DNA from: Candidatus Kuenenia stuttgartensis
Lineage (GTDB): Bacteria; Planctomycetota; GCA-002687715; CAIWVZ01
Direction of reading: 5' to 3'
DNA length: 64,000 nucleotides
Assembly (NCBI GenBank): GCA_945860915.1
Contig: CAMARR010000005.1
Coordinates: 85,018 to 149,017 of the forward strand
Below the pieces are notes generated by a model. It worked only from the letters and a program-made list of their open reading frames with translations, searched no databases and was not told where the DNA came from. How positions within the stretch are numbered: position 1 is the stretch's first letter; every line of letters starts with the position of its first letter. Below are positions 17,918-63,999 of this stretch, piece after piece. Position numbers and translations under genes: made by a program.

Positions 17918-19138
17918 TCAGGTCAAGATCTTCGACACCACGCCGGCGCCGACGGTTCGGCCACCTTCGCGAATGGCGAAGCGGAGTCCCTGCTCCATCG
18001 CGATGGGCGCAATGAGTTCTGCGCTCATCTTGATGCGATCACCAGGCATAACGACTTCAGCGTTGGTGCCGTCGTCAGCCGTGAACGCACTGATGGTGCC
18101 AGTTACGTCCGTCGTGCGGAAGTAGAACTGAGGCTTGTATCCCGCCTTGAACGGGGTCGAGCGTCCGCCCTCTTCCTTTTTGAGGATGTAGACCTCGCCG
18201 TCGAACTTCGTGTGGGGCAGGATGGAACCCGGCTTCGCGAGGACTTGTCCACGCTCGACCTCTTCCTTCTTCAAACCACGGAGAAGAACGCCGACGTTGT
18301 CGCCAGCCTGACCTTCATCGAGGAGCTTGCGGAACATTTCGACGCCCGTGCACACCGTCTTCTTGGTGGGAACGAGACCGATAAGTTCGAGCTCTTCGTT
18401 GACCTTGACGCGGCCACGCTCGACACGACCGGTGGCCACGGTGCCACGGCCTTCGATCGAGAAGACGTCTTCGACCGGCATGAGGAACGGCTTATCCGTC
18501 TCACGAATCGGCGTCGGGATCCAAGAGTCCACGGCGTCCATGAGCGCGTGGATGGGCTTGCACTCTTCGCCGTCGGCATTGCCGTTGGCCTCGAGTGACT
18601 GGAACGCCTTCAGGGCCGAGCCCTTGATGACCGGCGTCTTCTCGCCGTCAAATCCGTGCTTCGTGAGAAGCAAACGAATCTCTTCCTCGACGAGCTCGAG
18701 CATGTCGGGATCGTCGACTTGGTCGACCTTGTTCATGAAGACGACGATCTTCGGAACGCCGACCTGCTTCGCGAGCAGAATGTGCTCGTGAGTTTGCGGC
18801 ATCGGGCCGTCGGTCGACGCAACGACGAGAATCGCTCCGTCCATCTGCGCGGCACCCGTGATCATGTTCTTCACATAGTCAGCGTGGCCTGGGCAGTCGA
18901 CGTGAGCGTAGTGACGCGCGAGCGTCTCATATTCGACGTGAGCCGTATTGATGGTGATACCACGGGCACGCTCTTCTGGAGCGTTGTCGATCTGGTCATA
19001 CGCCTTCTTCTCCGCGAGGCCTTTGGTGGCCAACGCGAATGTGATGGTCGCAGTGAGCGTGGTCTTGCCGTGATCGACGTGACCGATGGTGCCGATGTTG
19101 ACGTGCGGCTTCGTCCGTTTGAATGCTTCCTTTGCCAT
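17918..19138 (-). CDS. tuf: Elongation factor Tu
   Basis: 406 aa with [17 protein letters not shown] and NKVD. Preceded by the classic Thr-Tyr-Gly-Thr tRNA set. Confidence 0.98.
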
Positions 19139-19224: not shown

Positions 19225-19300
<76 letters not shown>

Positions 19301-19375
19301 CTTGACACTTCTGTTGGTCCGGCGCGCGCCGGACCTGTCCTAGACGTCGAACCCCCGCACGAGGCGTGGGCCGAG

Positions 19376-19446
19376 AGCGGGTGAAGGGAATCGAACCCTC
19401 GTAACCAGCTTGGAAGGCTGGCGCTCTACCACTGAGCTACACCCGC
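19376..19446 (-). tRNA. tRNA-Gly (UCC)
   Basis: Reverse complement GCGGGTGTAGCTCAGTGGTAGAGCGCCAGCCTTCCAAGCTGGTTACGAGGGTTCGATTCCCTTCACCCGCT. Anticodon loop CTTCCAA. No CCA encoded. Confidence 0.92.
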
Positions 19447-19465
19447 GTTGCACCCGGGACATCAA

Positions 19466-19548
19466 TGGCGAGGGACGGATTCGAACCTTCGAAGACATAA
19501 GTCAACAGATTTACAGTCTGTCCCGTTTGACCGCTTCGGTACCTCGCC
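19466..19548 (-). tRNA. tRNA-Tyr (GUA), long variable arm
   Basis: Reverse complement GGCGAGGTACCGAAGCGGTCAAACGGGACAGACTGTAAATCTGTTGACTTATGTCTTCGAAGGTTCGAATCCGTCCCTCGCCA. Anticodon loop CTGTAAA. The T-stem GAAGG/CCGTC has one A-G mismatch. Confidence 0.88.
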
Positions 19549-19598
19549 GACGTTCGGGAGATTCGTATTGTCAACCCATCTCTACTCCCGTTAGATAG

Positions 19599-19671
19599 AG
19601 CCAGCGAACGGACTTGAACCGTCAACCTGCGGTTTACAAAACCGCTGCTCTACCGATTGAGCTACGCTGGC
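19599..19671 (-). tRNA. tRNA-Thr (UGU)
   Basis: Reverse complement GCCAGCGTAGCTCAATCGGTAGAGCAGCGGTTTTGTAAACCGCAGGTTGACGGTTCAAGTCCGTTCGCTGGCT. Anticodon loop TTTGTAA. Confidence 0.92.
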
Positions 19672-51824: not shown

Positions 51825-52676
51825 TCAGTTGAGGGTGTTGGTTGCCTTGTCGCCAACCTGCACGGACTGGCCAGGAGCCACGACCGTGAGGGTGCCGGCA
51901 CAGGACGATTCGAACACCTGATCAACCTTGATACGACCGATGTACGTGTTGCCACGAACGATGTCGAGAACGTATCCACGGGAGACCTTCGCGTTCTTGC
52001 CCGCATTGACCTGAACGAGCTTCATGCCCATGTCAACGTTGAGGACCGAGGCGTTGACCGGCTCCATCAAGATTCCGCCCTTAAGGTCGAAGCCTTGCTT
52101 TTGCGCGATCTCGATGAGAAGGCCCTGCTGATGCATTTTGTCATCAGCCGACTTCGCCATCTTTTCCATGTCCGCGATTTTGTTGTCGCGAGCCACGACG
52201 TCCGTGTGCTCTTTCTCGAACTTCGAGTTGGCCTCGCGCTCCTTCTGTTGAGCTTCGGCGGTCTCGGCGCGGAGCTTCGTGTTCTCGTCCACCTTCGCTT
52301 GGAGCCCGTCTTGCGTGCGCTTCAAGTTCTCGGTGACCGAGGCCACGTTCTTCTGCGCTTGGTCGAGCTGAGCATCCTTGGCCTTCTTGTCCGCTTCAGC
52401 GGCTTCGACCTGAGTCTTCAGCTGCTGGTTGGCGGCAGTGGCTTTGGCCTCTGCGTCACGCGCGGCGTTAAGGAGTGATTCCTTTTCGCCAAGTGCCTTG
52501 TCCTTCTCCGCGAGGGTGGCCTCGTGTCGAGTGACTAATGCCTTCAGCTCCTTAGCCTTGTTCTCGTGCTTGCCCTTCCAGTCGTTGTTTAGACCGAGGA
52601 AGGTGGCAGCCGTGAAGAGGAAGCCCGCTGCGAGCAGCAGGTTGAGTACGACAAAGATGCGGGCGATCTGGCTCAT
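51825..52676 (-). CDS. Membrane-anchored coiled-coil protein with C-terminal beta-rich domain (hypothetical)
   Basis: 283 aa. N-terminal TM (IFVVLNLLLAAGFLFTAATFL), ~170 aa of heptad-like K/E/A/Q-rich sequence, then ...VNASVLNVDMGMKLVQVNAGKNAKVSRGYVLDIVRGNTYIGRIKV...GQSVQVGDKAT. Confidence 0.8.
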   Translation of the reverse strand: MSQIARIFVVLNLLLAAGFLFTAATFLGLNNDWKGKHENKAKELKALVTRHEATLAEKDKALGEKESLLNAARDAEAKATAANQQLKTQVEAAEADKKAKDAQLDQAQKNVASVTENLKRTQDGLQAKVDENTKLRAETAEAQQKEREANSKFEKEHTDVVARDNKIADMEKMAKSADDKMHQQGLLIEIAQKQGFDLKGGILMEPVNASVLNVDMGMKLVQVNAGKNAKVSRGYVLDIVRGNTYIGRIKVDQVFESSCAGTLTVVAPGQSVQVGDKATNTLN

Positions 52677-52818: not shown

Positions 52819-54450
52819 TCATCGACGACGGATACAAAGCAGCAGCGCCAAGCCGCCAAGAATGGCCCAAGGCCAATCCCCGAATCTTACGAAAGGCGTG
52901 ATTTCCCGAGAAATCGGAAGCCGTTCCGCGAAGCCGCCGGCGACCTCCTTGCGGGCTCCGGCCCCATCTTCGACCACCGCAAGGCGACGGCCGTCGGGTC
53001 CAAAAATCGTCGAAATTCCTGAATTTGAAACACGGATCACGGTTCGACTGCACTCGACCGCGCGGAATTGGGTCGCAACATCCATTAGGTCCAGCTCTTC
53101 GGAATCGAAGAACCAAGCATCGTTCGAGATGTTCACGACGAAATCGGCACCCGCCACCACGCTTTCTCGGAAAAAGCGGGGAAAAATGGCCTCGAAGCAG
53201 ATCGAAAGCGCCCCGCGCCGCTCACCCCCCGGGGATCGCACGTTAAAGAGCCCCATCGCCGTCCCGGGCTCCAGATCCGGGACATACCCACCTACCTCTG
53301 CGATCCACCGGGTCACCGTTTCCTTGCCCGGGAAACCCGCTGGCCATGGGACATACTCACCAAACGGACAGAGGATTCGCTTTCCGTACCGAACGTCGTG
53401 TGTTGTAGGCACCCCGCCATTAAGGACCCACGCAACGTTCTCGGAGAGATAGCCGTCGTGGTCTTCATCCCGAGCTTCTGCCTCAACATCGCCTTTCACA
53501 ATCGCTTTTCCGACCGTGACACCTAAGACTGTGACTTGCCCAGGTCCCCGTAACACCGAGTCCCGGAAATGAACGACCGTATCGCCGGTTCTCGAGAATG
53601 CGGAGGGTCGGTCTAGGATGTACTCCAACGTGCGCTCGCTCGGTTCGCGAACTCCGGGAAAACAGGTCTCCGGCAGCACGAGCAGATCGGGGGCAGGGTC
53701 CAAGAATCGTTCAAGGATGCCCGCTTGGACTACCGCCTGACGCCCCGGCCCTTCGCGCAAGCGTTCCGCCTGGGGCACGTTTGGCTGAACCGCTACCGCG
53801 AGCGGCCCCGCGAGATCAACTTCCGGGCGCCACAACGTTCCTACCGCAAGGCCAACTCCAAGACAGATAAGAGAGGCATACACCCCGCGACGGGCCCGCG
53901 ATTGATGCTCGCGGTCACGACGACGGACAAAGGCGTACGAGACGGCGGCGGCGAGCGAGAGCATCAGCCATGAAATCAGATGCACTCTTCCGATCGCCGC
54001 GAGTCGCATCAAAGAGGCGATGCTTGCCTGTGTGTACCCTGGATTCGCCCACGAAAGTCCGATCAACAGGTCGCGAAGGACCGCGCATGAAGTCACCACC
54101 GTCGGGTAGAGAAACCAAGGCGCGACTCCCCTCGCGCGTCCGATGTCAAGCCAGCGACCCGTCAACCAAGCCGTAGGCATTCCAAGAAGCGGAACAAGGA
54201 AAATGAGCGGCGGCGCGAGCGTGCGGAGCCAGGCGAGCGTACTCGCCACGATGAGAAACTCGCCAAGCATCCAGATGCGGCCTGAACGTGGATCTCCCGC
54301 GACGCGCGGATCCATGTGCCTGATCATCCACGGCAGCGGCGCGATCCACGCGAGCGGCCATGCGTTGATGGGATGGAAGGCAGCGGCGAGCAAAGCCCAC
54401 GAAGCGACCATCGCGACCGCATCCCCCCGGTGCCGCGTCTTCATCATCAT
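52819..54450 (-). CDS. lnt: Apolipoprotein N-acyltransferase
   Basis: 543 aa. Polytopic N-terminal half, then a CN-hydrolase domain (...LLVLPETCFPG..., ...SICFEAIFPRF..., ...VNISNDAWF...). Confidence 0.9.
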   Translation of the reverse strand: MMMKTRHRGDAVAMVASWALLAAAFHPINAWPLAWIAPLPWMIRHMDPRVAGDPRSGRIWMLGEFLIVASTLAWLRTLAPPLIFLVPLLGMPTAWLTGRWLDIGRARGVAPWFLYPTVVTSCAVLRDLLIGLSWANPGYTQASIASLMRLAAIGRVHLISWLMLSLAAAVSYAFVRRRDREHQSRARRGVYASLICLGVGLAVGTLWRPEVDLAGPLAVAVQPNVPQAERLREGPGRQAVVQAGILERFLDPAPDLLVLPETCFPGVREPSERTLEYILDRPSAFSRTGDTVVHFRDSVLRGPGQVTVLGVTVGKAIVKGDVEAEARDEDHDGYLSENVAWVLNGGVPTTHDVRYGKRILCPFGEYVPWPAGFPGKETVTRWIAEVGGYVPDLEPGTAMGLFNVRSPGGERRGALSICFEAIFPRFFRESVVAGADFVVNISNDAWFFDSEELDLMDVATQFRAVECSRTVIRVSNSGISTIFGPDGRRLAVVEDGAGARKEVAGGFAERLPISREITPFVRFGDWPWAILGGLALLLCIRRR

Positions 54451-55697
54451 GAATCCAAATTCGGGAGCGGAACGCGTCGTGGGAGCATGATGACATCGAC
54501 GACATCCCCATCCTGACCAACGGTCCCCATGGGGAGAACCGCGAGGGCGTTGGCCTGCGCCAACCCACGAAGATCACCCGATCCGTTCCATCGGACGGGC
54601 GAAACCGTTGCTCCATCGGCGCCCACGCGCAGCGTGGCGGGAACATGTTGTGTTCGGGGTATTGCCTTGATGGCCCGATCGACGCGCAGTCGCGCGCTGA
54701 TGGTCGCGCCAAGAGGCGCCAACGAACCTAGTCGTGCGAGCAGCCATGGCCGCACGAAGAGCTCCATCGTCACACAGGAAGAAACCGGGTTGCCCGGCAA
54801 TCCGAACACGGTGCACACGTGGCCGTCGGTCCGAACGACATCGCCAAACAGGAACGGCTTGCCCGGCTTGATGGAGACCTTTTCTATGGCCACGCGCAAT
54901 CCGCGCTCCTTAAGCAACACGCCGACGAGGTCGAGGTCTCCCATCGACACACCGCCGGACAACACCAGAACGTCGTGATCGAGTCCCACATCGAAGAACG
55001 CGTTCAAACTGGCACGGTTGTCTCGCGCAATTCCGACCCGCGTGACGCGGAGTGAAGGCACGACCTCAAGTAATTGCGATTCGAGCAGCGTGCCGTTGCT
55101 TTCGTAGATGGCGCCCGGTTGCACAATCGCGTCACCCGGTGGCACAAGCTCATCTCCCGTCGGGACGACACATACCCTCGGCGCAGTGAACGACGGAACT
55201 GGGTCGCGCCCCAACATCGCCAAGAGTGCCAGCACTGGCGCGTCCATGATCGTTCCGCGCGCGACCACGACGTCTCCCTTGCGAAAGTCCTCACCGCGTC
55301 GGGCAACGTTCTGCCATGGCTTCACAGCGCGCCGCAGTTCGACATGCGATCCGCCATGCATCATCGCTGTGTCTTCCACCGGCAAGACTGCGTCGGCCCC
55401 CGGCGGCAGCGGCGCGCCGGTCATGATCTTGGCCGCGGTACCGCGTTGGAGTGGCGCACCCTCCATCCCCGCGACAATACGCCCAGAGACCGGCAGTATC
55501 GTCGGCGACGCTACGTCGAGCGCGGCCACGGCGTATCCGTCCATCGTCGACTTGTCGAACGGCGGAAAATCGGACCCCGCCGAGACATCTGCAGCGAGCG
55601 CGCGCCCACGAGCATCAGAAAGCGGGACCTCTGAGGCCCTCCTCCCGGCGACACCATGCGCCAGAATAATGGCGATTGCCTCCTCTTTGGTCATCAT
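54447..55697 (-). CDS. moeA: Molybdopterin molybdenumtransferase MoeA
   Basis: 416 aa. ...FPPFDKSTMDGYAV..., ...GDELV.PG... and ...LSGGVSMGD.D... are MoeA/gephyrin-E blocks. Confidence 0.9.
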   Translation of the reverse strand: MMTKEEAIAIILAHGVAGRRASEVPLSDARGRALAADVSAGSDFPPFDKSTMDGYAVAALDVASPTILPVSGRIVAGMEGAPLQRGTAAKIMTGAPLPPGADAVLPVEDTAMMHGGSHVELRRAVKPWQNVARRGEDFRKGDVVVARGTIMDAPVLALLAMLGRDPVPSFTAPRVCVVPTGDELVPPGDAIVQPGAIYESNGTLLESQLLEVVPSLRVTRVGIARDNRASLNAFFDVGLDHDVLVLSGGVSMGDLDLVGVLLKERGLRVAIEKVSIKPGKPFLFGDVVRTDGHVCTVFGLPGNPVSSCVTMELFVRPWLLARLGSLAPLGATISARLRVDRAIKAIPRTQHVPATLRVGADGATVSPVRWNGSGDLRGLAQANALAVLPMGTVGQDGDVVDVIMLPRRVPLPNLDS

Positions 55698-55699
55698 GA

Positions 55700-57031
55700 C
55701 TAAAGAGGGACCGATCCGCGCTTCGCGTCAAGAACATCCATAAACGCCGAGACGCTGAAGACTGCATTGCCGATCCCAGGATCACCGTAGCCGGGCGGCG
55801 CCGCCAGACCGTGGCGTTCCAGAGCAGCCTTATAGAGGTCTAGAAGCCCTGCGTGATAAGCGAGCGGTGCCGGCGGGTTCGTCGCACCCAACTCCGAGAG
55901 TGGTTCCGGGCACCACGTCGTGAACCGGGGAATCACGCCGCGGGACATCATGTAATCAAGACCCTCGCCTGTAGACTTCAGTGCGTCCTCGATGCGGCTA
56001 AATCCAAATGGCTTCGACATCTCGACGCCACCCACGAAATTCGGAATGACCTTGCCTCGTCCGAAAACGTCCACCGAATCCAAAATCCTCCGAATCCACG
56101 TATCACGACCCACGTATCGCTCCTTGCCAGGGCAAATCAATTTGAACTTTTCTGCATCCCAGATCTCGTAGTTCGGATGGTAGATCCGAATGCCCGACGC
56201 GTGGATGCGCCGCACGGACTCCAACGGCAGCGCCTGCACGACCATCTTCCCGATCCACCGACCGGGAAACTCCGCCTCGATGGCCTCGGCGTAGCGCACA
56301 TAGAAGGAAGCCTCATCGAGTCCATCGAGCTCGGACGTGATGCTGCCGCCCGTCAACGTGTATGCCCGCGCTTGCGCGCCCGACGCGACAACCCGACGTA
56401 ACGCATCGAGCACGCGTTCGACCGGCTTGACCGGAAAGTAAGGCCGACCTGATGCCTTCTGTTGTCGGAAGTTCTCGTTGATATCGCAGAAGCGGCACTC
56501 TTCGTCGCGCCCGAAGTACTGGCACAGCCTGAATACCGTTAGGTAGAGCAGGTACCCCCACTCGATGGTCGGCGCCACTTCGATCACAGGCGTGCCATCG
56601 TTGGTCAGCTGGCCGTAGTACGGCGGTTTGGGAGCGAAGCCGACGTCGGCGATCGGCTCGCCACCATCGCATCGCAAAACCGCGCGTCCGTCGACGGCAT
56701 CAACCTTCCACGAGCTCGACGGATTCAGCCGGACCGAAACAATGACCCTCCGAAATCCCCAAGTGCCTCCCGTGAGGCTGATCTCCTCCGGCGCCGCATC
56801 GCGTTCAGCGCCTTCCATTTCCGCCAACGGCCGGTGGTCGAACGAGAAGATGAAATAGGACTTCTCCGCGTACTCGCGATGAACCGCCAGGGCTTCCGCC
56901 GAGAACCACACCCCCTGACGCAGGAGGTCTTCTTTTACGAGCGCCTCGACGGGTAACTCTGGATACCGAGCATGAAGCGCGTCAATCTCTGCGAGTGAAC
57001 CGGACCCATCGCGAGTAACGATCGAAGACAT
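55700..57031 (-). CDS. Radical-SAM-like Fe-S protein with atypical cysteine spacing (function unknown)
   Basis: Cys triad LCQYFGRDEECRFCD (C-x8-C-x2-C by my count), followed by ...AYTLTGGSI... (GGE-like) and TIM-barrel-like alternation. The start is uncertain: ATG at 57031 or GTG at 57136, and neither has a good SD. Confidence 0.6.
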   Translation of the reverse strand: MSSIVTRDGSGSLAEIDALHARYPELPVEALVKEDLLRQGVWFSAEALAVHREYAEKSYFIFSFDHRPLAEMEGAERDAAPEEISLTGGTWGFRRVIVSVRLNPSSSWKVDAVDGRAVLRCDGGEPIADVGFAPKPPYYGQLTNDGTPVIEVAPTIEWGYLLYLTVFRLCQYFGRDEECRFCDINENFRQQKASGRPYFPVKPVERVLDALRRVVASGAQARAYTLTGGSITSELDGLDEASFYVRYAEAIEAEFPGRWIGKMVVQALPLESVRRIHASGIRIYHPNYEIWDAEKFKLICPGKERYVGRDTWIRRILDSVDVFGRGKVIPNFVGGVEMSKPFGFSRIEDALKSTGEGLDYMMSRGVIPRFTTWCPEPLSELGATNPPAPLAYHAGLLDLYKAALERHGLAAPPGYGDPGIGNAVFSVSAFMDVLDAKRGSVPL

Positions 57032-57487
57032 ACGCCATGTTCGCAACGTCGGGGTACGCCGGGAAGCAGGAGCCAATCGGAAATTCGCATCTTGAACTTG
57101 CTCGAAACGACAAGACTCCGATCGTGCGAGAACCACGGCGTATTATGGGTCGCGACGCACTCGGGGCTCTTTGGCCTACGCAAACTTGCCTAATTGCCTA
57201 ATAAGGCAGCGCCCGTCGTAGGCGTTTGCTGGGCACGACAGAACGAAGCGCTGCGGCTTGATAAAGCCCGGACTACCCAAGTCGCCGGTTCGCATTTGCC
57301 TCCTCGCGTGAAGGCCGCATTGAGGGCTCGCGTGAAGCCCTAGGGTCGAAGGTTGGCTTAGTCTAGTGGGATTTCCCCATAAATCTCACAGCAATGGCGG
57401 TGGCCCAAACCTTGCCCCATAAATCGTTGGAGGACCGGGGCTTAGATGGGCGATTTGGCCGAATCGCCCGCGCATTCCGTCTTTTTT

Positions 57488-57517
57488 TTGCACATCGGAC
57501 GGTGCGTCCCTTATAAT
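57488..57517 (+). promoter_or_regulatory. Sigma70-like promoter of paralog 1
   Basis: TTGCAC (57488-57493), 18-nt spacer, TATAAT (57512-57517). A T8 tract abuts the -35. Same architecture upstream of copies 2 and 3. Confidence 0.55.
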
Positions 57518-57578
57518 CCCTGCGTGTGCTAGGGGTCCGCCGAACGCGTGGGCCTCACTAACCTCCAAGGAGTTCAAC

Positions 57579-59273
57579 ATGAAGTTCCGTTCACTCGCCG
57601 CGGCGTTTGCCGCCCTCGCTTCGCTTGCTGCTGCCCAAGGCTCCGTCTGCGGCACGCCGTTCACCACATTGGCATCGGGTGGAAACGGTCAATCCGGCGT
57701 GATGTTTGATATCGAGAACATCTCCGCGAATCCCATCACGATTTGTGGCATGGATGTCAACCTCGATATGAGTGCGGTTCCCCAGGCAATTGGCGTCTGG
57801 ACCGTTACTGCTGGCACGTCCCACGTGCCGGTTGCGACCACCGCTGCCTCGTGGACGCAGCAGGCGTTCGGAAGCACCTTGTCACTTGGAACCAATACCA
57901 CCGGCGTCAACAATCCATTCACGCCGATCCCTAGCGCGCTCTCCATTGTCATCGCGCCAGGGCAAAAGCTCGGATTTGCAGTAGGGTGCACGACGAATAC
58001 TTTCATCAACTACACCAGCGGGACCAATTTAGCGACCAGCGTAAACCAACCTCAATCGAACGACGGCGTCCTTCGGTGGTGGGCCGGCTACGGAAAGTCG
58101 AACGTCGCGGGCGTCGGTCCGTTCGGAACCAACTTTGGGTCGCTCACGACCGGCGGTCGGCTTGCAAACGTACGCGTCGGCTACTTCGGTGGTGTCACGA
58201 CGCCAAACTGGGAACTCAACGACGCTGCATCATCGATGGATCTCGATGGCGTCGCGACGCAGTTTGCATCGGCGATAGCGCCTTCGGTTCGTAATCAGTG
58301 CGTCAACAACACGACCAACGTGAACCTCGCCTCCACTAATGTTGGATTGGGTTACGAAGTCGTGTACGGACTTGCACCGTTGGTCGCAGCTGGAGCTGGC
58401 GCCATCGCATCGACAGGTGGTCAGCTCTTAAACGTTGACTTGACCGATCCAACCGTCACGTTCCTCCACGGACTCAGCTTGGCGGTTCCATTCGCCAACC
58501 AATCGATTCCTTTTGCCGCGCCCATCCCACTAGGCGTATCGGCACAGATGGCGAATATTGATCCGGCCAACCCGGACCTCATCGCACTCTCCGCTGCTGT
58601 GCGATTCCAGTCCAATCCGACATCCTCAACAATCACGTACGGCCCCTCTGGCCTTTCGGATGACGGTTTCTACAACCTCACGGCCGGGGCACTTCCAACG
58701 TCACCGACATGCCTGACCGCGATCCCTGCATTCAGCTTCTACGGGACCACCTTCACGGAATACTCCGTGGCAATGAACGGACGCATCATGATTGGTGCGA
58801 CGACGTTCGCGGGTGACTTCTCGGCAACGGTCGCTGAAGGGCTCTCGCAGACGCCATTCGCGGGATGCTGGACAGATATGAACCCTCTCGCAGGTGGCGC
58901 AACCGCTTCCGTCGCCGTGGACTGGACCTCGGGTACCAACCTGAATGTCGCCTACAACAACATCGTCTACTTCGGAACCACGTCACCTCAGTTCTCCTAC
59001 TCGATCAATCTTGACTCGGCGACCGGCGCAATCTGGATCAGTGGGATCAACAACCTCCCGGCAGGCACCGCCTCCATGTTTCTTGGCATGACTCGTGGCA
59101 ACACAGGTGCGACGGACCCGGGTGCGACTGCGTTCGCGGTTGGCAACGGATCTGCGGCCAATGCGAACGACATGCTCTACGCCTTCGGAACCAATGGTTC
59201 CTTAGCACCAGGCGTGGCGTCGATCGTCTTCACCCCCAACATGGGTGGCGGCTACGACTGGGTCGGCTTCTGA
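57579..59273 (+). CDS. Secreted Cys-containing, charge-poor protein, tandem paralog 1 (unrecognised family; NIDO-like C-terminal half)
   Basis: 564 aa. AAGGAG 6 nt upstream of the ATG. Signal peptide MKFRSLAAAFAALASLAAAQG. Rich in G/T/S/A/N with very few Lys. Ends ...IVFTPNMGGGYDWVGF*. Confidence 0.9.
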   Translation: MKFRSLAAAFAALASLAAAQGSVCGTPFTTLASGGNGQSGVMFDIENISANPITICGMDVNLDMSAVPQAIGVWTVTAGTSHVPVATTAASWTQQAFGSTLSLGTNTTGVNNPFTPIPSALSIVIAPGQKLGFAVGCTTNTFINYTSGTNLATSVNQPQSNDGVLRWWAGYGKSNVAGVGPFGTNFGSLTTGGRLANVRVGYFGGVTTPNWELNDAASSMDLDGVATQFASAIAPSVRNQCVNNTTNVNLASTNVGLGYEVVYGLAPLVAAGAGAIASTGGQLLNVDLTDPTVTFLHGLSLAVPFANQSIPFAAPIPLGVSAQMANIDPANPDLIALSAAVRFQSNPTSSTITYGPSGLSDDGFYNLTAGALPTSPTCLTAIPAFSFYGTTFTEYSVAMNGRIMIGATTFAGDFSATVAEGLSQTPFAGCWTDMNPLAGGATASVAVDWTSGTNLNVAYNNIVYFGTTSPQFSYSINLDSATGAIWISGINNLPAGTASMFLGMTRGNTGATDPGATAFAVGNGSAANANDMLYAFGTNGSLAPGVASIVFTPNMGGGYDWVGF

Positions 59274-59307
59274 TCGCCTAGTTCATTAGAGTCCATTTTC
59301 GGCTCTT

Positions 59308-59349
59308 GAAGGCGCCCTTCGACTTCTGTCGAGGGGCGTCTTCATTTCT
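59308..59349 (+). terminator. Hairpin terminator after paralog 1
   Basis: A 16-bp stem gaaggcgcccttcgac / gtcgaggggcgtcttc (two G-U pairs), loop ttct, then atttct. Homologous in position to the copy-2 terminator. Confidence 0.55.
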
Positions 59350-59562
59350 AATCCGCCTGTCCAACTGAGAACGCGCTCCGCGATCTGTCTCGTACATCAG
59401 CGCTCCGGGCGCACACGCCCCGGAAACCGCAAGAACATCGAAAAATCTTGCTTGAGTAGCACGACAGTGGCTTGCGTGACTTACCGGACCAAAGTCGTTA
59501 CCGGACAAGCTGTTAGCTAGGCAGATCGTTGGCGAGGGCTTGCGAACATTGGATTTGATTGT

Positions 59563-59592
59563 TTGCACAATTGCCAATGCGTCCCTTATGAT
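59563..59592 (+). promoter_or_regulatory. Sigma70-like promoter of paralog 2
   Basis: TTGCAC (59563-59568), 18-nt spacer, TATGAT (59587-59592). Lies within a block nearly identical to the copy-1 upstream region. Confidence 0.55.
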
Positions 59593-59653
59593 CCCTGCGT
59601 GTGCTAGGGGTCCGCCGAACGCGCGGGCCTCACTAACCTCCAAGGAGTTCAAC

Positions 59654-61375
59654 ATGAAGTTCCGTTCACTCGCCGCGGCGTTTGCTGCGGTGGCATCTCT
59701 CGCAGCAGCCCAAGGCTCAGCCTGCGGCACGCCGTTTACAACCTGGAATATTACTGCCCAAAACGGCCAAAACGGTGTGATGTTCGACGTCGAGAACATT
59801 TCGTGCAATACAGTCACGATTTGCGGCATGGACATCAACCTTGACTCATCGGCAGCTCAGCAAACGATCGGCGTCTGGACCGTGACTGCGGGCACGTCCC
59901 ATGTGCCGGTTGCGAGCACGGCTGCCGCATGGACTCAACAGGCCTTGGGGCCTACCACGTCACTCGGGATCAACACCACGGGAATAGGCAACACATTTAC
60001 GCCGATCCCCAGCGCCCTCAGCATCACGATCGCGTCAGGACAACGGCTCGGATTTGCGGTGGCATGCTCGACTGGCACTTTGGTCAACTATCAAACCGGG
60101 ACCGCCGCCACTCAGAGCGTAGGCATGCCCATGTCAAACGACGGCACGCTCAAGTGGTATGCCGGCTTCGGCAAGGCTTACTTAGCGGGTGTCGGACCGT
60201 TCGGAGGAAGCTTCGGTACAGCAACCACCGGCGGCCGCCTTGCGAGCGTCCGGCTCGGCTACACAAGCGGACCCCCGTCGTTTGCGCCGTCATGGGAACT
60301 CAACAGCGCGGCCTCTTCATTGGACATCAATGGGGTCTCGACGCAACTAGCATGTGGTCTCAACGCGGCCGTAAGCAACCAGTGCGTTGGCGTCTCGTCA
60401 AACGTTGCACTCAATTCGACCAACGTCGGCTTCCCATTCGACGTGGTGTATGGGTCGTTGCCCTTGGCGCCGGGTGGCTCCGCAGGTTCCTTCGCGACAG
60501 CCAACGGTCAGCTCGTAAACGTCGACGTCACGGATCCAAACCTTGGGTTCCTGCTTGGACTCGCGTTCACGTCTCCGTTTGCCAACGCGGTGATTCCGTT
60601 CTCGTCACCCGTCCCGCTCGCCATCTCGTCGCAGTTGCTGAACATCGACGTGTCCAATCCGGACGGATTCGCGCTCTCGGCCGCCGCACGCTTCCAGGTG
60701 AATCCAATAGCGACCAGCCTGACTTTAGGCCAAAGTGCACTTGCGGACGACGGATTCGTCTCATTGCCTAGCGGGCTCGCTCCGACTTTCCCCGCCTGCC
60801 TCGGCACTGGTCCAGTGATGCCGTTCTACGGAACGAACTACACGCAGACTTTCGTGGCGTCAAACGGCCGTGTTCTCTTTGGCGCCAGCGCAAACGCAGG
60901 CGACTTCAGCCCAACGGCCACCGAACCCGTTACGCAATCACCGTCCATGGGATTCTGGGTCGACCTTGAGCCGAACCTCTCCGTAGGTTGCTCGTTGGTC
61001 GTCGACTGGAGCACCTCCGTTGTGACCGTCGCCTACAACAACATGCGGTATTGGGGCAACGCGGCTTTGTTCCTGAATGGGTCGATGTCATTGGACACGG
61101 CAACCGGTGTCATCACGCTTTCGGGAATGAACACGTTCCCGGTATTCCCGGTGACGGCGGGATCCGACAACAACATGTTCCTCGGTATCTCACGCGGCGG
61201 TGGACTTGCGACGAATCCAGGCCCGACGGCGTTCGCCGCAGCCGGTTCAGGCAGCGCTGCCTTGGCAACCGACATGCTGTACGTCTTCGGCCAAGCCGGT
61301 ACGCTCGCACCGGGCGTCGCATCGATCGCCTTCACCCCCAACATGGGCGGCGGCTATGACTGGGCCGGCTTCTGA
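59654..61375 (+). CDS. Secreted Cys-containing, charge-poor protein, tandem paralog 2
   Basis: ORF 59540..61375 trimmed to the ATG at 59654 (AAGGAG 6 nt upstream). 573 aa. Signal peptide MKFRSLAAAFAAVASLAAAQG. Ends ...IAFTPNMGGGYDWAGF*. Confidence 0.9.
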   Translation: MKFRSLAAAFAAVASLAAAQGSACGTPFTTWNITAQNGQNGVMFDVENISCNTVTICGMDINLDSSAAQQTIGVWTVTAGTSHVPVASTAAAWTQQALGPTTSLGINTTGIGNTFTPIPSALSITIASGQRLGFAVACSTGTLVNYQTGTAATQSVGMPMSNDGTLKWYAGFGKAYLAGVGPFGGSFGTATTGGRLASVRLGYTSGPPSFAPSWELNSAASSLDINGVSTQLACGLNAAVSNQCVGVSSNVALNSTNVGFPFDVVYGSLPLAPGGSAGSFATANGQLVNVDVTDPNLGFLLGLAFTSPFANAVIPFSSPVPLAISSQLLNIDVSNPDGFALSAAARFQVNPIATSLTLGQSALADDGFVSLPSGLAPTFPACLGTGPVMPFYGTNYTQTFVASNGRVLFGASANAGDFSPTATEPVTQSPSMGFWVDLEPNLSVGCSLVVDWSTSVVTVAYNNMRYWGNAALFLNGSMSLDTATGVITLSGMNTFPVFPVTAGSDNNMFLGISRGGGLATNPGPTAFAAAGSGSAALATDMLYVFGQAGTLAPGVASIAFTPNMGGGYDWAGF

Positions 61376-61413
61376 TAGCCTAGTTCACTAGAGTCGACTA
61401 ACGGCTCTTGAAG

Positions 61414-61450
61414 GCGCCCTCCGGCACAGGTCGGAGGGCGCTTTTGTTTT
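61414..61450 (+). terminator. Rho-independent terminator after paralog 2
   Basis: Perfect 10-bp stem gcgccctccg (61414-61423) / cggagggcgc (61432-61441), 8-nt loop, then TTTTGTTTT. Confidence 0.8.
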
Positions 61451-61614
61451 CGACGGCGGCATCCTCTCGGACGACTTTCGCGGACAGTTATTCGCATCAA
61501 TTCGATGCATAGTGATGGCAGCGATTCGGATCGCAACTGCAGATAGGCTAGGCGGTCCCGTGCGCAAGCTAGCCGCCCTCCCCCGCACATACGAGGCAAT
61601 CCGACGCGCGTTAT

Positions 61615-61644
61615 TTGCAGGAACCGCGTGGCGGCCCATATGAT
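61615..61644 (+). promoter_or_regulatory. Sigma70-like promoter of paralog 3
   Basis: TTGCAG (61615-61620), 18-nt spacer, TATGAT (61639-61644). About 60 nt upstream of the ATG at 61705. Confidence 0.5.
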
Positions 61645-61704
61645 TGTCTCGTCTACATAGGCGTCAGCAATCCCGCGAGTCTCTCGATTCCTAAGGAGTT
61701 CGTC

Positions 61705-63414
61705 ATGAGGTTTCGTCAAATCTCCGCGGCGTTTGCTGCGGTGGCATCTCTCGCAGCAGCCCAAGGCTCATCCTGCGGCACGCCCTTCACGACTTGGAAC
61801 ATCACGGCATCGAACGGCCAAAACGGTGTGATGTTCGACGTCGAGAACATTTCGATCAACCCGGTCACGATATGTGGAATGGATATCAATCTCGACAGTT
61901 CAGCTATCCCGCTAACGATCGGCGTCTGGACGGTCACCGCCGGTACATCGCATGTACCGGTGGCGTCCAACGCGGCGGCCTGGACTCAACAGGCCTTGGG
62001 GCCTACCACGTCACTCGGGATCAACACCACGGGAATAGGCAACACATTTACGCCGATCCCGGGCGCCCTTAGCATCACAATCACCCCCGGGCAAAAACTT
62101 GGAATTGCGGTCGGCTGTTCACAGTCGACATTCATCAATTATCAATCGGGAAGTGCGGCTCAAGGCGTCGGCACAGCCATCTCCAACGACGGCGTCCTCA
62201 ACTGGTACGCGGGTTACGGCAAAGCTTATCTTGCGGGTATCGGCCCTTTCGGGAACAGCTTCGGTTCGGCCGCCGGTGGACGACTCGCCAGCGTCCGGCT
62301 GGGCTATACGCAAGGGACCGGATCGATTTATTGGGAATTGAACAGCGCCGCCTCATCAATGGATATTGACGGTGTCGCGACGCAATTCGCTTCCGCAGTG
62401 TCACCCTCGGTTCGAAACCAGTGCGCCAGCATCACGTCCTACCTCAACGTCGCGTCAACCAACGCTGGAAGTCCGTTCGAGATAATCTTCGGTACAGCGC
62501 CACTTGTTCGGGGGAGTTTTGGTGCGCTTGCCACTCCGGGCGGCCAATACGTGAATGTGGATCTCGCAGATCCGAACATCGGATTTGTACTCGGGCTCAC
62601 CTTCAGCGTTCCATTCGCATCGGCGACCGTGCCGTTTGCCTCCCCTACGCCTATGAACATTTCAACGCAGCTCGTCAACATCGATCCAACGCATGTTGAT
62701 GGACTTGCGTTATCCGCCGCTTGTCGCCTCGCAATCACGGGCCAGTCGACTTTAGTCACTTTGGCTGGGTCTCAATTGTCCGACGACGGTTTCTATACGC
62801 TCGGCTCGCCGCCGACCACCCCCACGTGCGTGGCATCGGTCCAACCATTTTCGTTCTATGGCATCAGCCATTCGCAGTTCTCCGTTGCAATGAACGGTCG
62901 CCTCTGCATCGGGCCCACGTCCTTCGCTGGAGAGTATTTACCCTCCGTGACCTCGGCAATGACACAAACACCGTTTGCTGGGTTCTGGGCTGATTTGCAC
63001 CCCGGCATCGCAGCAACGCTTCCCTTGCCCGCGTCCATCGTCATTGACTGGACAACCGGAACGAACCTTCACGTCGCCTACAACAACATCGTTCTGTTTG
63101 GCACGGCAGCACCGCAGTTCTCGTTCTCGATCGACCTCGATTCCTCGAACGGTGCCATCACTCTCTCTGGCGTCAACCAGATTCCAAACCCGGGCACGGG
63201 AGGCGGAGGTGGCTCCATGTTCCTCGGCATGTCGCGCGCGGGCACAGGTGCAACGGACCCTGGAGCGACTGCATTCACCATCGGCAGTGGCTCGGCGCCC
63301 AATCCGAACGCCATGCTTTACGCCTTCGGACAACCTGGAACGCTCGCACCCGGGGTGACTTCGATTGTCTTCACCCCGAACCTCGGAGCGGGTTACAACT
63401 GGGCTGCATTCTGA
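61705..63414 (+). CDS. Secreted Cys-containing, charge-poor protein, tandem paralog 3
   Basis: ORF 61615..63414 trimmed to the ATG at 61705 (AAGGAG 6 nt upstream). 569 aa. Signal peptide MRFRQISAAFAAVASLAAAQG. Ends ...IVFTPNLGAGYNWAAF*. Confidence 0.9.
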   Translation: MRFRQISAAFAAVASLAAAQGSSCGTPFTTWNITASNGQNGVMFDVENISINPVTICGMDINLDSSAIPLTIGVWTVTAGTSHVPVASNAAAWTQQALGPTTSLGINTTGIGNTFTPIPGALSITITPGQKLGIAVGCSQSTFINYQSGSAAQGVGTAISNDGVLNWYAGYGKAYLAGIGPFGNSFGSAAGGRLASVRLGYTQGTGSIYWELNSAASSMDIDGVATQFASAVSPSVRNQCASITSYLNVASTNAGSPFEIIFGTAPLVRGSFGALATPGGQYVNVDLADPNIGFVLGLTFSVPFASATVPFASPTPMNISTQLVNIDPTHVDGLALSAACRLAITGQSTLVTLAGSQLSDDGFYTLGSPPTTPTCVASVQPFSFYGISHSQFSVAMNGRLCIGPTSFAGEYLPSVTSAMTQTPFAGFWADLHPGIAATLPLPASIVIDWTTGTNLHVAYNNIVLFGTAAPQFSFSIDLDSSNGAITLSGVNQIPNPGTGGGGGSMFLGMSRAGTGATDPGATAFTIGSGSAPNPNAMLYAFGQPGTLAPGVTSIVFTPNLGAGYNWAAF

Positions 63415-63495
63415 CGGCGAACTAACACATCATGGCGACGTGGTGCAACGGCGTAGCCTTGCTATCGTGCCAAGCCTCGTAGGAGGTTTGACATC

Positions 63496-63999
63496 ATGCC
63501 GACCCCACTTACCGGATCTCCCGATGGCCGCGGACGCAAGGTCGCCATCGTGGTGGCGCGCTTCAACTCAGAGATCACGGACCGCCTTCTCGCAGGGGCA
63601 CTCAGGGGTCTTGCGGCAGCTGGCGTCGATGACGCGAACATCACCGTAACCTCCGTCCCAGGAGCGGTGGAAATCCCCTTCGCAGCCCAGCGAATCGTGG
63701 GACGCAACGATGCGGTGATTGCCCTCGGGGCAGTGATTCGCGGCGAGACCAGCCACTATGACTACGTATGTGACATAGTCTCGAACGGCGTTATGCGGGT
63801 AATGCTCGACTCGGGCTGCCCAATCGCCTTCGGAGTGCTGACCTGCGACACCGACGCGCAGGCGCTTGCCCGCGCCGGCGACGGCGACGACAACAAGGGC
63901 TTCGAGGCAGCGCGAGTCGCCCTCGAGATGGCGGACCTCACCAAGAAGGTCTCCGCGCTTGGCGCCCCCCTATCGCTCGGCTTCGGAGGTCGCGCGTGA
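63496..63999 (+). CDS. ribH: 6,7-dimethyl-8-ribityllumazine synthase
   Basis: 167 aa. AGGAGG upstream. ...KVAIVVARFNSEITDRLL.GA...VPGAVEIPFAA..., ...AVIALGAVIRGETSHYDYV... are lumazine synthase blocks. Confidence 0.94.
   Translation: MPTPLTGSPDGRGRKVAIVVARFNSEITDRLLAGALRGLAAAGVDDANITVTSVPGAVEIPFAAQRIVGRNDAVIALGAVIRGETSHYDYVCDIVSNGVMRVMLDSGCPIAFGVLTCDTDAQALARAGDGDDNKGFEAARVALEMADLTKKVSALGAPLSLGFGGRA

Follow-up and report, generated by a model that had tools for sequence, protein, structure and literature searches.

A tandem array of three genes in a 64,000-nucleotide (nt) stretch of DNA from Candidatus Kuenenia stuttgartensis (assembly GCA_945860915.1, contig CAMARR010000005.1, positions 85,018 to 149,017; this whole stretch is called the window) encodes Sec-exported, acidic and non-enzymatic proteins of three beta-sandwich modules, which belong to a large, unannotated and modular family. 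We tentatively read them as an abundant cell-surface coat or matrix protein of the S-layer-like kind and give this reading a probability of roughly 40%. It is favoured because the gene organization, the composition, the domain types and the side-by-side arrangement of the paralogs parallel those of S-layer loci; surface location, protein abundance and the formation of a coat or lattice are inferred.

The genes follow one another on the plus strand as open reading frames (ORFs) of 564 amino acids (aa; copy 1, 57579-59273), 573 aa (copy 2, 59654-61375) and 569 aa (copy 3, 61705-63414), the last one ending 82 nt before the start of ribH at 63496. A first-pass annotation of the sequence had called them three consecutive paralogs, and they are: pairwise identity is 60-62% from end to end, with a mean column identity of 77% in the protein alignment. 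On the plus strand, copy 1 divides into a signal peptide (aa 1-19, 57579-57635), an N module (aa 20-205, 57636-58193), a middle module (aa 206-358, 58194-58652) and a putative NIDO-like (nidogen-like) C module (aa 359-564, 58653-59270). The signal peptide and the three-module layout recur in copy 2.

All three N-termini follow the pattern M(K/R)FR...LAAA in front of QG (MKFRSLAAAFAALASLAAA followed by QG), described before as a near-identical, cleavable-looking signal peptide ending in AAAQG. A predicted cleavage site and a hydrophobic core are seen in the window proteins, and the relatives agree. In an alignment of 48 family members (A4), Ala, Gly or Ser precedes Gln at the aligned cleavage site in 47, and the prepeptide of ~20 aa combines a positive n-region with a hydrophobic core (best 10-residue hydropathy of at least 1.9, with A, G or S at position -1, in 47 of the 48). 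The call was made from such sequence features across the 48 members, and the proteins show the positive n-region, the hydrophobic core and the small residues at -3 and -1 expected of Sec substrates of signal peptidase I (SPase I). For the distant relative P0007 the public gene call is too short; the real ATG at position 65 of contig L091 restores a signal peptide (MKLIASAAAAALVSCLAFA followed by QGAACGS). Judged by these features, translocation of the three proteins across the inner membrane is well supported. Since the residue at +1 is Gln in 47 of the 48 members, the mature proteins would start with Gln, possibly as pyroglutamate. Two other routes of export or anchoring were considered and rejected. 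A lipoprotein would need a lipobox ([LVI][ASTVI][GAS]C) at the end of the signal peptide, which is absent (Cys24 is preceded by G-S-(V/A/S), with Gly at -3, and occurs in only 19 of 48 relatives), and cargo of the type IX secretion system (T9SS) would carry a Por_Secre_tail or CHU_C sorting domain at the C-terminus, which is absent from the window proteins and was seen only in those Bacteroidota proteins that have the N module.

The composition of the mature proteins is as first described: Gly, Thr, Ser, Ala and Asn together make up 51-53%, Lys and Glu are scarce (2 Lys and 4-5 Glu), and the proteins are net acidic with a pI of 4.05-4.43. Charged residues (K+R+E+D) account for ~6%, compared to 26% in nine other proteins of the window, a composition that we regard as typical of cheap, abundant extracellular structural proteins. 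The earlier statement that the proteins lack an enzyme motif is also correct in that no catalytic motif is recognisable in them. Five cysteine positions had been listed as conserved, and all five are present in the three copies. Family-wide conservation is found only for C241 and C378, the remaining cysteines being specific to the clade of the window copies. C241 and C378 occur together in 39 of 47 members, which makes a disulfide between the middle module and the C module probable.

An AlphaFold2 model computed from a 48-sequence alignment reached a mean predicted local distance difference test score (pLDDT) of 87 and a predicted template modelling score (pTM) of 0.60, with 334 residues at pLDDT of at least 90; an earlier model from a 5-sequence alignment (pLDDT 32) was discarded. 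Behind a low-confidence N-terminal helix, which corresponds to the signal peptide, the model shows an all-beta, modular build of three predicted domains (~aa 25-205, 210-355 and 360-564), and neither a barrel nor a transmembrane segment is found in it. This bears on the idea that the proteins are outer-membrane beta-barrels of the porin or autotransporter type, which draws on the aromatic C-terminus that the three copies share, ...Y(D/N)W(V/A)(G/A)F. In the model, however, the last strand is packed into the C domain (pLDDT ~98) of a row of three beta-sandwiches. Moreover, family members differ in their last residue (F, Q, L, Y, S or G) and no family of outer-membrane proteins is matched. The sandwich model and the variable terminal residue effectively refute the barrel, and we give it next to no credence.

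A Foldseek comparison of the whole three-domain model with the Protein Data Bank (PDB) returned no match at E <= 1e-3. Only Ig-like, FN3, carbohydrate-binding-module and cupredoxin-like sandwiches were listed, with query-normalised template modelling (TM) scores of 0.09-0.14; among these weak matches are carbohydrate-binding modules and, from the glycoside hydrolase BuGH158, the C-terminal domain. The viral database BFVD contributed only low-TM phage tail- or fibre-like beta-sandwich arrays (query-normalised TM <=0.26, PDB included).

Sequence comparison did not connect the proteins with a named family either. None of the three matched Pfam or NCBIfam at E <= 1, a profile search of the PDB sequences gave no match at E <= 10, and a Pfam scan of 48 relatives yielded noise-level matches only; the first-pass annotation had called the family unrecognised, which holds true for these curated libraries. 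We also found no described planctomycete surface protein of this kind in the literature. In an exhaustive HMMER search with a 5-sequence profile, 793 clusters were recovered at E <= 1e-3 and 203 at E <= 1e-30, where the clusters are representatives at 50% identity. With 793 clusters the family is neither small nor an orphan, and its relatives with an organism name are almost all in Planctomycetota. The outcome depended on the search method. A word-index protein search recovered just the three window proteins and two orthologs, did not go beyond 5-6 proteins even with a 48-sequence profile, and is unsuited to this family, which we consider to be of low complexity. Scanning genome contigs with a single protein as query gave nothing, and scanning species-representative genomes with the family profile gave 133 relatives, almost all in metagenome-assembled genomes (MAGs) of Planctomycetota. 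The sources of these MAGs include Delaware Bay, the Río de la Plata, a membrane bioreactor and Tara Oceans bins, and others are labelled Isosphaeraceae, Pirellulaceae or Brocadiaceae. Among the genomes with an organism name, the phyletic range is mostly planctomycetal. Proteins identical to those of the window are also present in MAG GCA_947493275.1 and in European Nucleotide Archive (ENA) assemblies of the same population.

Module borders were mapped with a hidden Markov model (HMM) of 48 full-length members against six-frame ORFs of the fetched loci. Three separable modules emerged, N (positions 1-182), middle (182-330) and C (core ~363-490), which occur in Planctomycetota as N-middle-C, N-C, N-N-C, N-C-C and N alone. 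Many of the HMMER matches cover only profile positions ~205-565, behind unrelated N-termini. Fusions of a trypsin-like domain with N and C modules were found in two loci of Planctomycetota MAGs, L022 (4861-7377) and L034 (4531-7578), with a trypsin-like match above the Pfam cut-off in L034 and a weaker one in L022. A third protein (P0089) has a below-threshold Trypsin_2 match upstream of a family region with only partial module coverage. Because the trypsin-like matches precede N and C modules, the family modules may serve as accessory or anchoring domains of secreted enzymes. In another protein (P0066) a lamin tail domain (LTD) is followed by middle and C modules, and in Bacteroidota the N module lies inside large proteins with LTD, HYR (hyalin repeat), P_proprotein, Ig-like and Por_Secre_tail domains.

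This reuse of modules is the basis of the main rival to the coat, according to which the proteins are secreted or loosely surface-attached binding proteins, i.e. adhesins or binders of glycans or particles, with the N module as ligand head and no ordered layer. It is fed by several observations at once: the N module is one of many domains in adhesin-like Bacteroidota proteins secreted by T9SS and stands beside trypsin-like domains, the body of middle and C module is joined to many alternative N-termini, the modules are reused promiscuously with protease fusions included, and the weak fold matches lead to carbohydrate-binding modules and to the C-terminal domain of BuGH158. None of the matches to a characterised binding module is significant, however, and conservation among the three copies is highest in the N module (69-82% versus ~50-60% elsewhere), which is not expected if the paralogs had diversified in ligand specificity. 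On balance we hold binding proteins to be somewhat unlikely.

All recognisable partner domains of the family modules are extracellular, and it is from this company that passage of the window proteins across the outer membrane is suggested. They could also be abundant periplasmic proteins, which would be exported by Sec, retained between the membranes and form a structural or buffering part of an enlarged periplasm. The Sec signal peptide is the only targeting signal that we detected, with none for the outer membrane or for anchoring there, and the conserved cysteine pair fits an oxidising compartment. Against a periplasmic residence, homologous modules are part of T9SS-sorted proteins that are exported across the outer membrane, and NIDO-like and Ig-like modules are typically extracellular. 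Taken together, we regard the periplasmic alternative as improbable.

The conserved motifs of the C module (FYGT.YT...V.SNGRV.FG, F.PT, P..G.W.DL.P..GG, V.Y..VPYFG and F.I..D..TG) recall the NIDO domain, and for this reason we tested the relation by comparing profiles. The NIDO alignment was seeded with a segment of human nidogen-1, which Pfam confirmed as a full-length NIDO domain (E 2.9e-61). Comparison with a single NIDO sequence in hhalign gave no signal; a profile was needed on both sides. With the whole-family alignment A4, the NIDO profile produced one match, which fell on the C module in the expected register (P = 0.0036, probability 9%). With an alignment of 183 C-module sequences the probability rose to 64% (E 6e-5), over 93 columns or, after trimming of the NIDO alignment, 122 columns. 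The hhalign score of 36.6 compares with 11.9 for the reversed NIDO alignment, with at most 20.9 in 30 column shuffles and with at most 25.6 in 30 block shuffles. The Pfam model itself (PF06119) matched none of the three proteins at its gathering score or at E <= 1; its best match to a relative had an E of 0.12 (one of 48 family members), and none of ten N-C proteins was matched. Since the Pfam model misses the family and the PDB holds no NIDO structure for a fold comparison, we call the C module NIDO-like and not a member of PF06119. From the profile alignments it is probably a remote NIDO-like domain, and the novelty claimed in the first-pass annotation is narrowed to this extent: a named family is missing from the curated libraries, but one of the three modules probably has a known relative.

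Each gene is preceded by the same expression signals, namely TTGCA(C/G), an 18-nt spacer and TAT(A/G)AT, then a leader and AAGGAG at a spacing of 6 nt; this arrangement had been pointed out before and can be read in all three intergenic sequences. On the plus strand, the promoter-like elements span 57488-57517 for copy 1 (-35 TTGCAC 57488-57493, -10 TATAAT 57512-57517, with a T8 tract in front), 59563-59592 for copy 2 (-35 TTGCAC 59563-59568, -10 TATGAT 59587-59592) and 61615-61644 for copy 3 (-35 TTGCAG 61615-61620, -10 TATGAT 61639-61644). A generic promoter scanner lists the first two sites and not that of copy 3, which was read directly from the sequence. Promoter-like sites are not in excess across the region (2 found, 2.6 expected in shuffled sequence), and the case for promoters therefore rests on their repeated position and on their conservation in related genomes (L005, L009), where the architecture TTGCA-N17/18-(T/C)ATAAT is found upstream of relatives as well.

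The leader is ~55 nt long in all three genes. That of copy 1 (57524-57578, plus strand) is 98% identical to that of copy 2 and contains AAGGAG at 57567-57572; the corresponding plus-strand motifs lie at 59642-59647 (copy 2) and 61693-61698 (copy 3), each 6 nt before the ATG. The predicted fold of the leader RNA was no better than that of shuffled sequence, and an Rfam search of the region gave no match. The strong hairpin terminators described for copies 1 and 2 stood up to shuffling: the copy-1 hairpin (59307-59352, plus strand) has a 17-bp stem followed by a T-rich tail (-33 kcal/mol, z = -8.5) and the copy-2 hairpin (61410-61451, plus strand) likewise a T-rich tail (-32 kcal/mol, z = -4.3), each equalled by none of 200 shuffles. 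Copy 3, which lies 82 nt from ribH, has no terminator. The description of the genes as independently transcribed is thus true for initiation, as every copy has its own promoter-like site and ribosome-binding site and independent transcription starts are well supported; because copy 3 lacks a terminator, its transcription may continue into ribH-nusB. The copy-1 promoter is preceded by two 14-nt direct repeats, TT(T/G)CCCCATAAATC, which are found 40 nt apart on the plus strand (57372-57385 and 57412-57425) within a 440-nt gene-free region. Their 11-mer occurs four times in the window against 0.47 expected, and the repeats may be a candidate site for a regulator.

Further information on transcription came from eight single-gene contigs of 1764-1874 nt (seven Joint Genome Institute (JGI) samples and one Sequence Read Archive (SRA) run). 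They carry P0004 and P0223, which are the ribH-proximal orthologs of a sister lineage with 52-60% identity to the window copies, and the more distant relative P0007; further contigs of the same size are found in the cluster membership. The contigs begin 45-64 nt upstream of the true ATG, with the exception of L089, which reaches 86 nt further upstream. The starts of the three P0004 contigs differ by no more than 3 nt, and the start of L006 lies 15 nt after the -10 box CATAAT of the matching genomic locus L009. As the contigs are gene-length, hold one gene each and start 45-64 nt before the ATG, we consider it strongly suggested that they are monocistronic mRNAs of relatives. The Ga0255xxx and Ga0256xxx data sets are presumably river metatranscriptomes.

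In a distance tree the window copies group together as a single clade, whose sister is the ribH-proximal copy of related MAGs, with the upstream copy of these MAGs branching outside that grouping. This points to lineage-specific duplication, concerted evolution or both. At the DNA level the identity of copies 1 and 2 is a mosaic: 98% in the segment from promoter to signal peptide (57500-57640 versus 59575-59715), 55-70% in the coding bodies and ~92% at the 3' ends including the terminators (59200-59345 versus 61300-61445). Copies 2 and 3 share one 60-nt tract with 97% identity. The pattern speaks for gene conversion or for untranslated regions under strong constraint. It can also be taken as the trace of a variation system, in which gene conversion would shuffle the paralogs and each would serve, under differential expression, as an alternative surface antigen or variant phage receptor. 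The mosaic with its homogenised 5' ends, the own promoter of each copy and the recurrent lineage-specific duplication would all suit such a system. It is difficult to reconcile with near-consensus promoters on all three copies, none of which resembles a silent cassette, and with the variation among 15 close orthologs, where 11-18% of the sites vary in every domain and none is hypervariable. Neither invertible elements nor recombinase genes were found near the array, and we see only a slim chance that it serves variation.

The array had also been singled out as the accessory-looking block of the window. In the sense of a foreign island this does not apply: the three genes do not stand out from the genome in GC content, GC at third codon positions (GC3; 0.66-0.70) or codon usage. 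The closest relatives, which are 52-61% identical to the window copies, are found in three loci (L009, L010 and L005) as two tandem copies followed by ribH, whose product is 73-74% identical to the RibH of the window. Because base composition and codon usage are ordinary and the array adjoins ribH in related MAGs too, it is native and syntenic and not a recent island. These data indicate a vertically inherited locus, and we reject the reading as a horizontally acquired island; the array is nevertheless lineage-restricted.

Conserved neighbours are limited to ribH and nusB in close relatives and to moeA in three lineages. The moeA gene (molybdopterin molybdenumtransferase, 54447-55697, minus strand) lies near the array, and moeA adjoins or lies near a family gene in three distant planctomycete lineages (also L019, 7715-8806, and L048, 7697-8752), which may be an old synteny. 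Genes of a modABC-like transporter are located a few genes downstream of the array in the source contig. The divergent neighbour of copy 1 (55700-57031, minus strand) encodes a variant radical SAM protein (NCBIfam NF045502, E 3e-51) with the cluster C-x8-C-x2-C (CQYFGRDEECRFC) in place of the canonical CxxxCxxC, and it has no homolog beside family genes in the other loci examined. Between lnt and mreB, a 283-aa protein (51825-52676, minus strand) has weak coiled-coil-type matches (SMC, PspA) and the third-highest codon adaptation in the window (0.776); it is possibly a cytoskeletal or envelope protein with high expression. Elsewhere in the window, a tRNA cluster (19225-19671, minus strand) with the transcription order Thr(TGT)-Tyr(GTA)-Gly(TCC)-Thr(GGT) directly precedes the EF-Tu gene (17918-19138) and the rplKAJL-rpoBC block downstream of it, an organization that is ordinary and conserved in bacteria.

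According to the favoured coat reading, SPase I would cleave the Sec-exported precursor after A-x-A and leave an N-terminal Gln on a mature protein of ~55 kDa that is very acidic, poor in charges and without recognisable catalytic motif. It would fold into an N head, a middle part and a NIDO-like C module, each of them a beta-sandwich, with a probable disulfide between C241 and C378. Each gene would start its own transcript at a strong promoter of the sigma-70 type, the ~55-nt leader would contain a consensus ribosome-binding site, and the transcripts of copies 1 and 2 would be closed by the terminators. The products would be abundant, non-enzymatic surface parts of uncultured planktonic Planctomycetota, assembled as an S-layer-like coat or surface matrix, in which assembly or attachment might fall to the body of middle and C module and interactions to the exposed N module. 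The array would have arisen by lineage-specific tandem duplication, partly homogenised by gene conversion, and the paralogs may co-assemble or substitute for one another. A build of Ig-like or other beta-sandwich domains is common among S-layer proteins (bioRxiv 10.1101/2024.05.28.596244).

Several points weigh against this coat. There is no direct evidence of a location past the inner membrane, and a T9SS C-terminal domain, an SLH domain, a lipobox or a PEP-CTERM signal was found in none of the three proteins with Pfam and NCBIfam. Module shuffling that includes protease fusions is more typical of binding modules than of lattice proteins, and classical S-layer proteins do not usually contain several cysteines each. 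No conserved neighbour gene for assembly or secretion was found across the loci examined. As to abundance, the codon adaptation of the window copies is mid-range (0.63-0.68 versus 0.81 for EF-Tu and 0.74-0.76 for RpoB and RpoC), which lends no support to exceptional expression, and the JGI samples are unconfirmed as metatranscriptomes. The more specific proposal, that the family is the major S-layer coat of abundant uncultured freshwater or estuarine Planctomycetota and is assembled through its NIDO-like domain, is a long shot.

We see the most interesting threads in the probable bacterial NIDO-like module and in the possible coat of abundant uncultured planktonic planctomycetes. With ~800 clusters unannotated, domain definitions for the three modules would give an annotation to many hypothetical proteins in Planctomycetota and in the surface proteins of Bacteroidota. 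If the C module is related to NIDO, as is probable, bacteria may be a reservoir of a domain that has so far been discussed only in the animal extracellular matrix. If the proteins do coat planktonic planctomycetes, phage adsorption, grazing and attachment to particles in rivers and estuaries would take place at this interface, and the proteins would be good targets for cell-specific labelling. Should the coat in addition be assembled through the NIDO-like domain, the NIDO fold would for the first time be placed in a functional and structural context outside animals, and the proteinaceous envelope of planctomycetes, which has long been debated, would become accessible at the molecular level.

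Compared with known systems, the C module is closest to the NIDO domain (PF06119), with which aa ~387-510 of copy 1 align in register over the 122 columns. The run FYG...V.SNGR..F, F.PT, P..G.W.DL.P, V.Y..VPYFG and F.I..D is paralleled in NIDO by FY...V.TNG.I, FPPTF, VAPF.ADLD, V.TWE.VAPY and NTFQAVL, and we regard both domains as extracellular and non-catalytic. The window proteins differ in being bacterial, whereas NIDO proteins are metazoan (nidogen, alpha-tectorin, MUC4 and SNED1), in joining the module to two further unannotated beta modules, and in a relation that lies below detection by Pfam. With T9SS-dependent surface proteins of Bacteroidota they share the N module (HMM ~1-182; whole-protein E 1e-38 to 1e-114), but these are much larger, have neither the middle nor the C module and possess a T9SS sorting domain, which is missing from the window proteins. 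The Gln behind the SPase I site resembles the 'Q-rule' of secreted proteins in Bacteroidetes, here in Planctomycetota. S-layer proteins, in turn, are often made from strongly expressed monocistronic genes with silent or co-assembling paralogs, for instance TfsA and TfsB of Tannerella. TfsA/TfsB of Tannerella forsythia and the slp products of Lactobacillus are likewise acidic, non-enzymatic, beta-rich and exported, with sizes of roughly 50-60 kDa or more. Their genes are monocistronic, with a strong promoter, a leader, a terminator and paralogs side by side, an organization that the array appears to share. In contrast to them, the window proteins contain several cysteines and have no sequence or fold match to an S-layer protein or to an anchoring domain (SLH, CWB2 or T9SS C-terminal). 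A secreted surface-type protein of several beta-sandwiches, encoded in a small tandem array, is of a familiar kind and implies no unusual mechanism.

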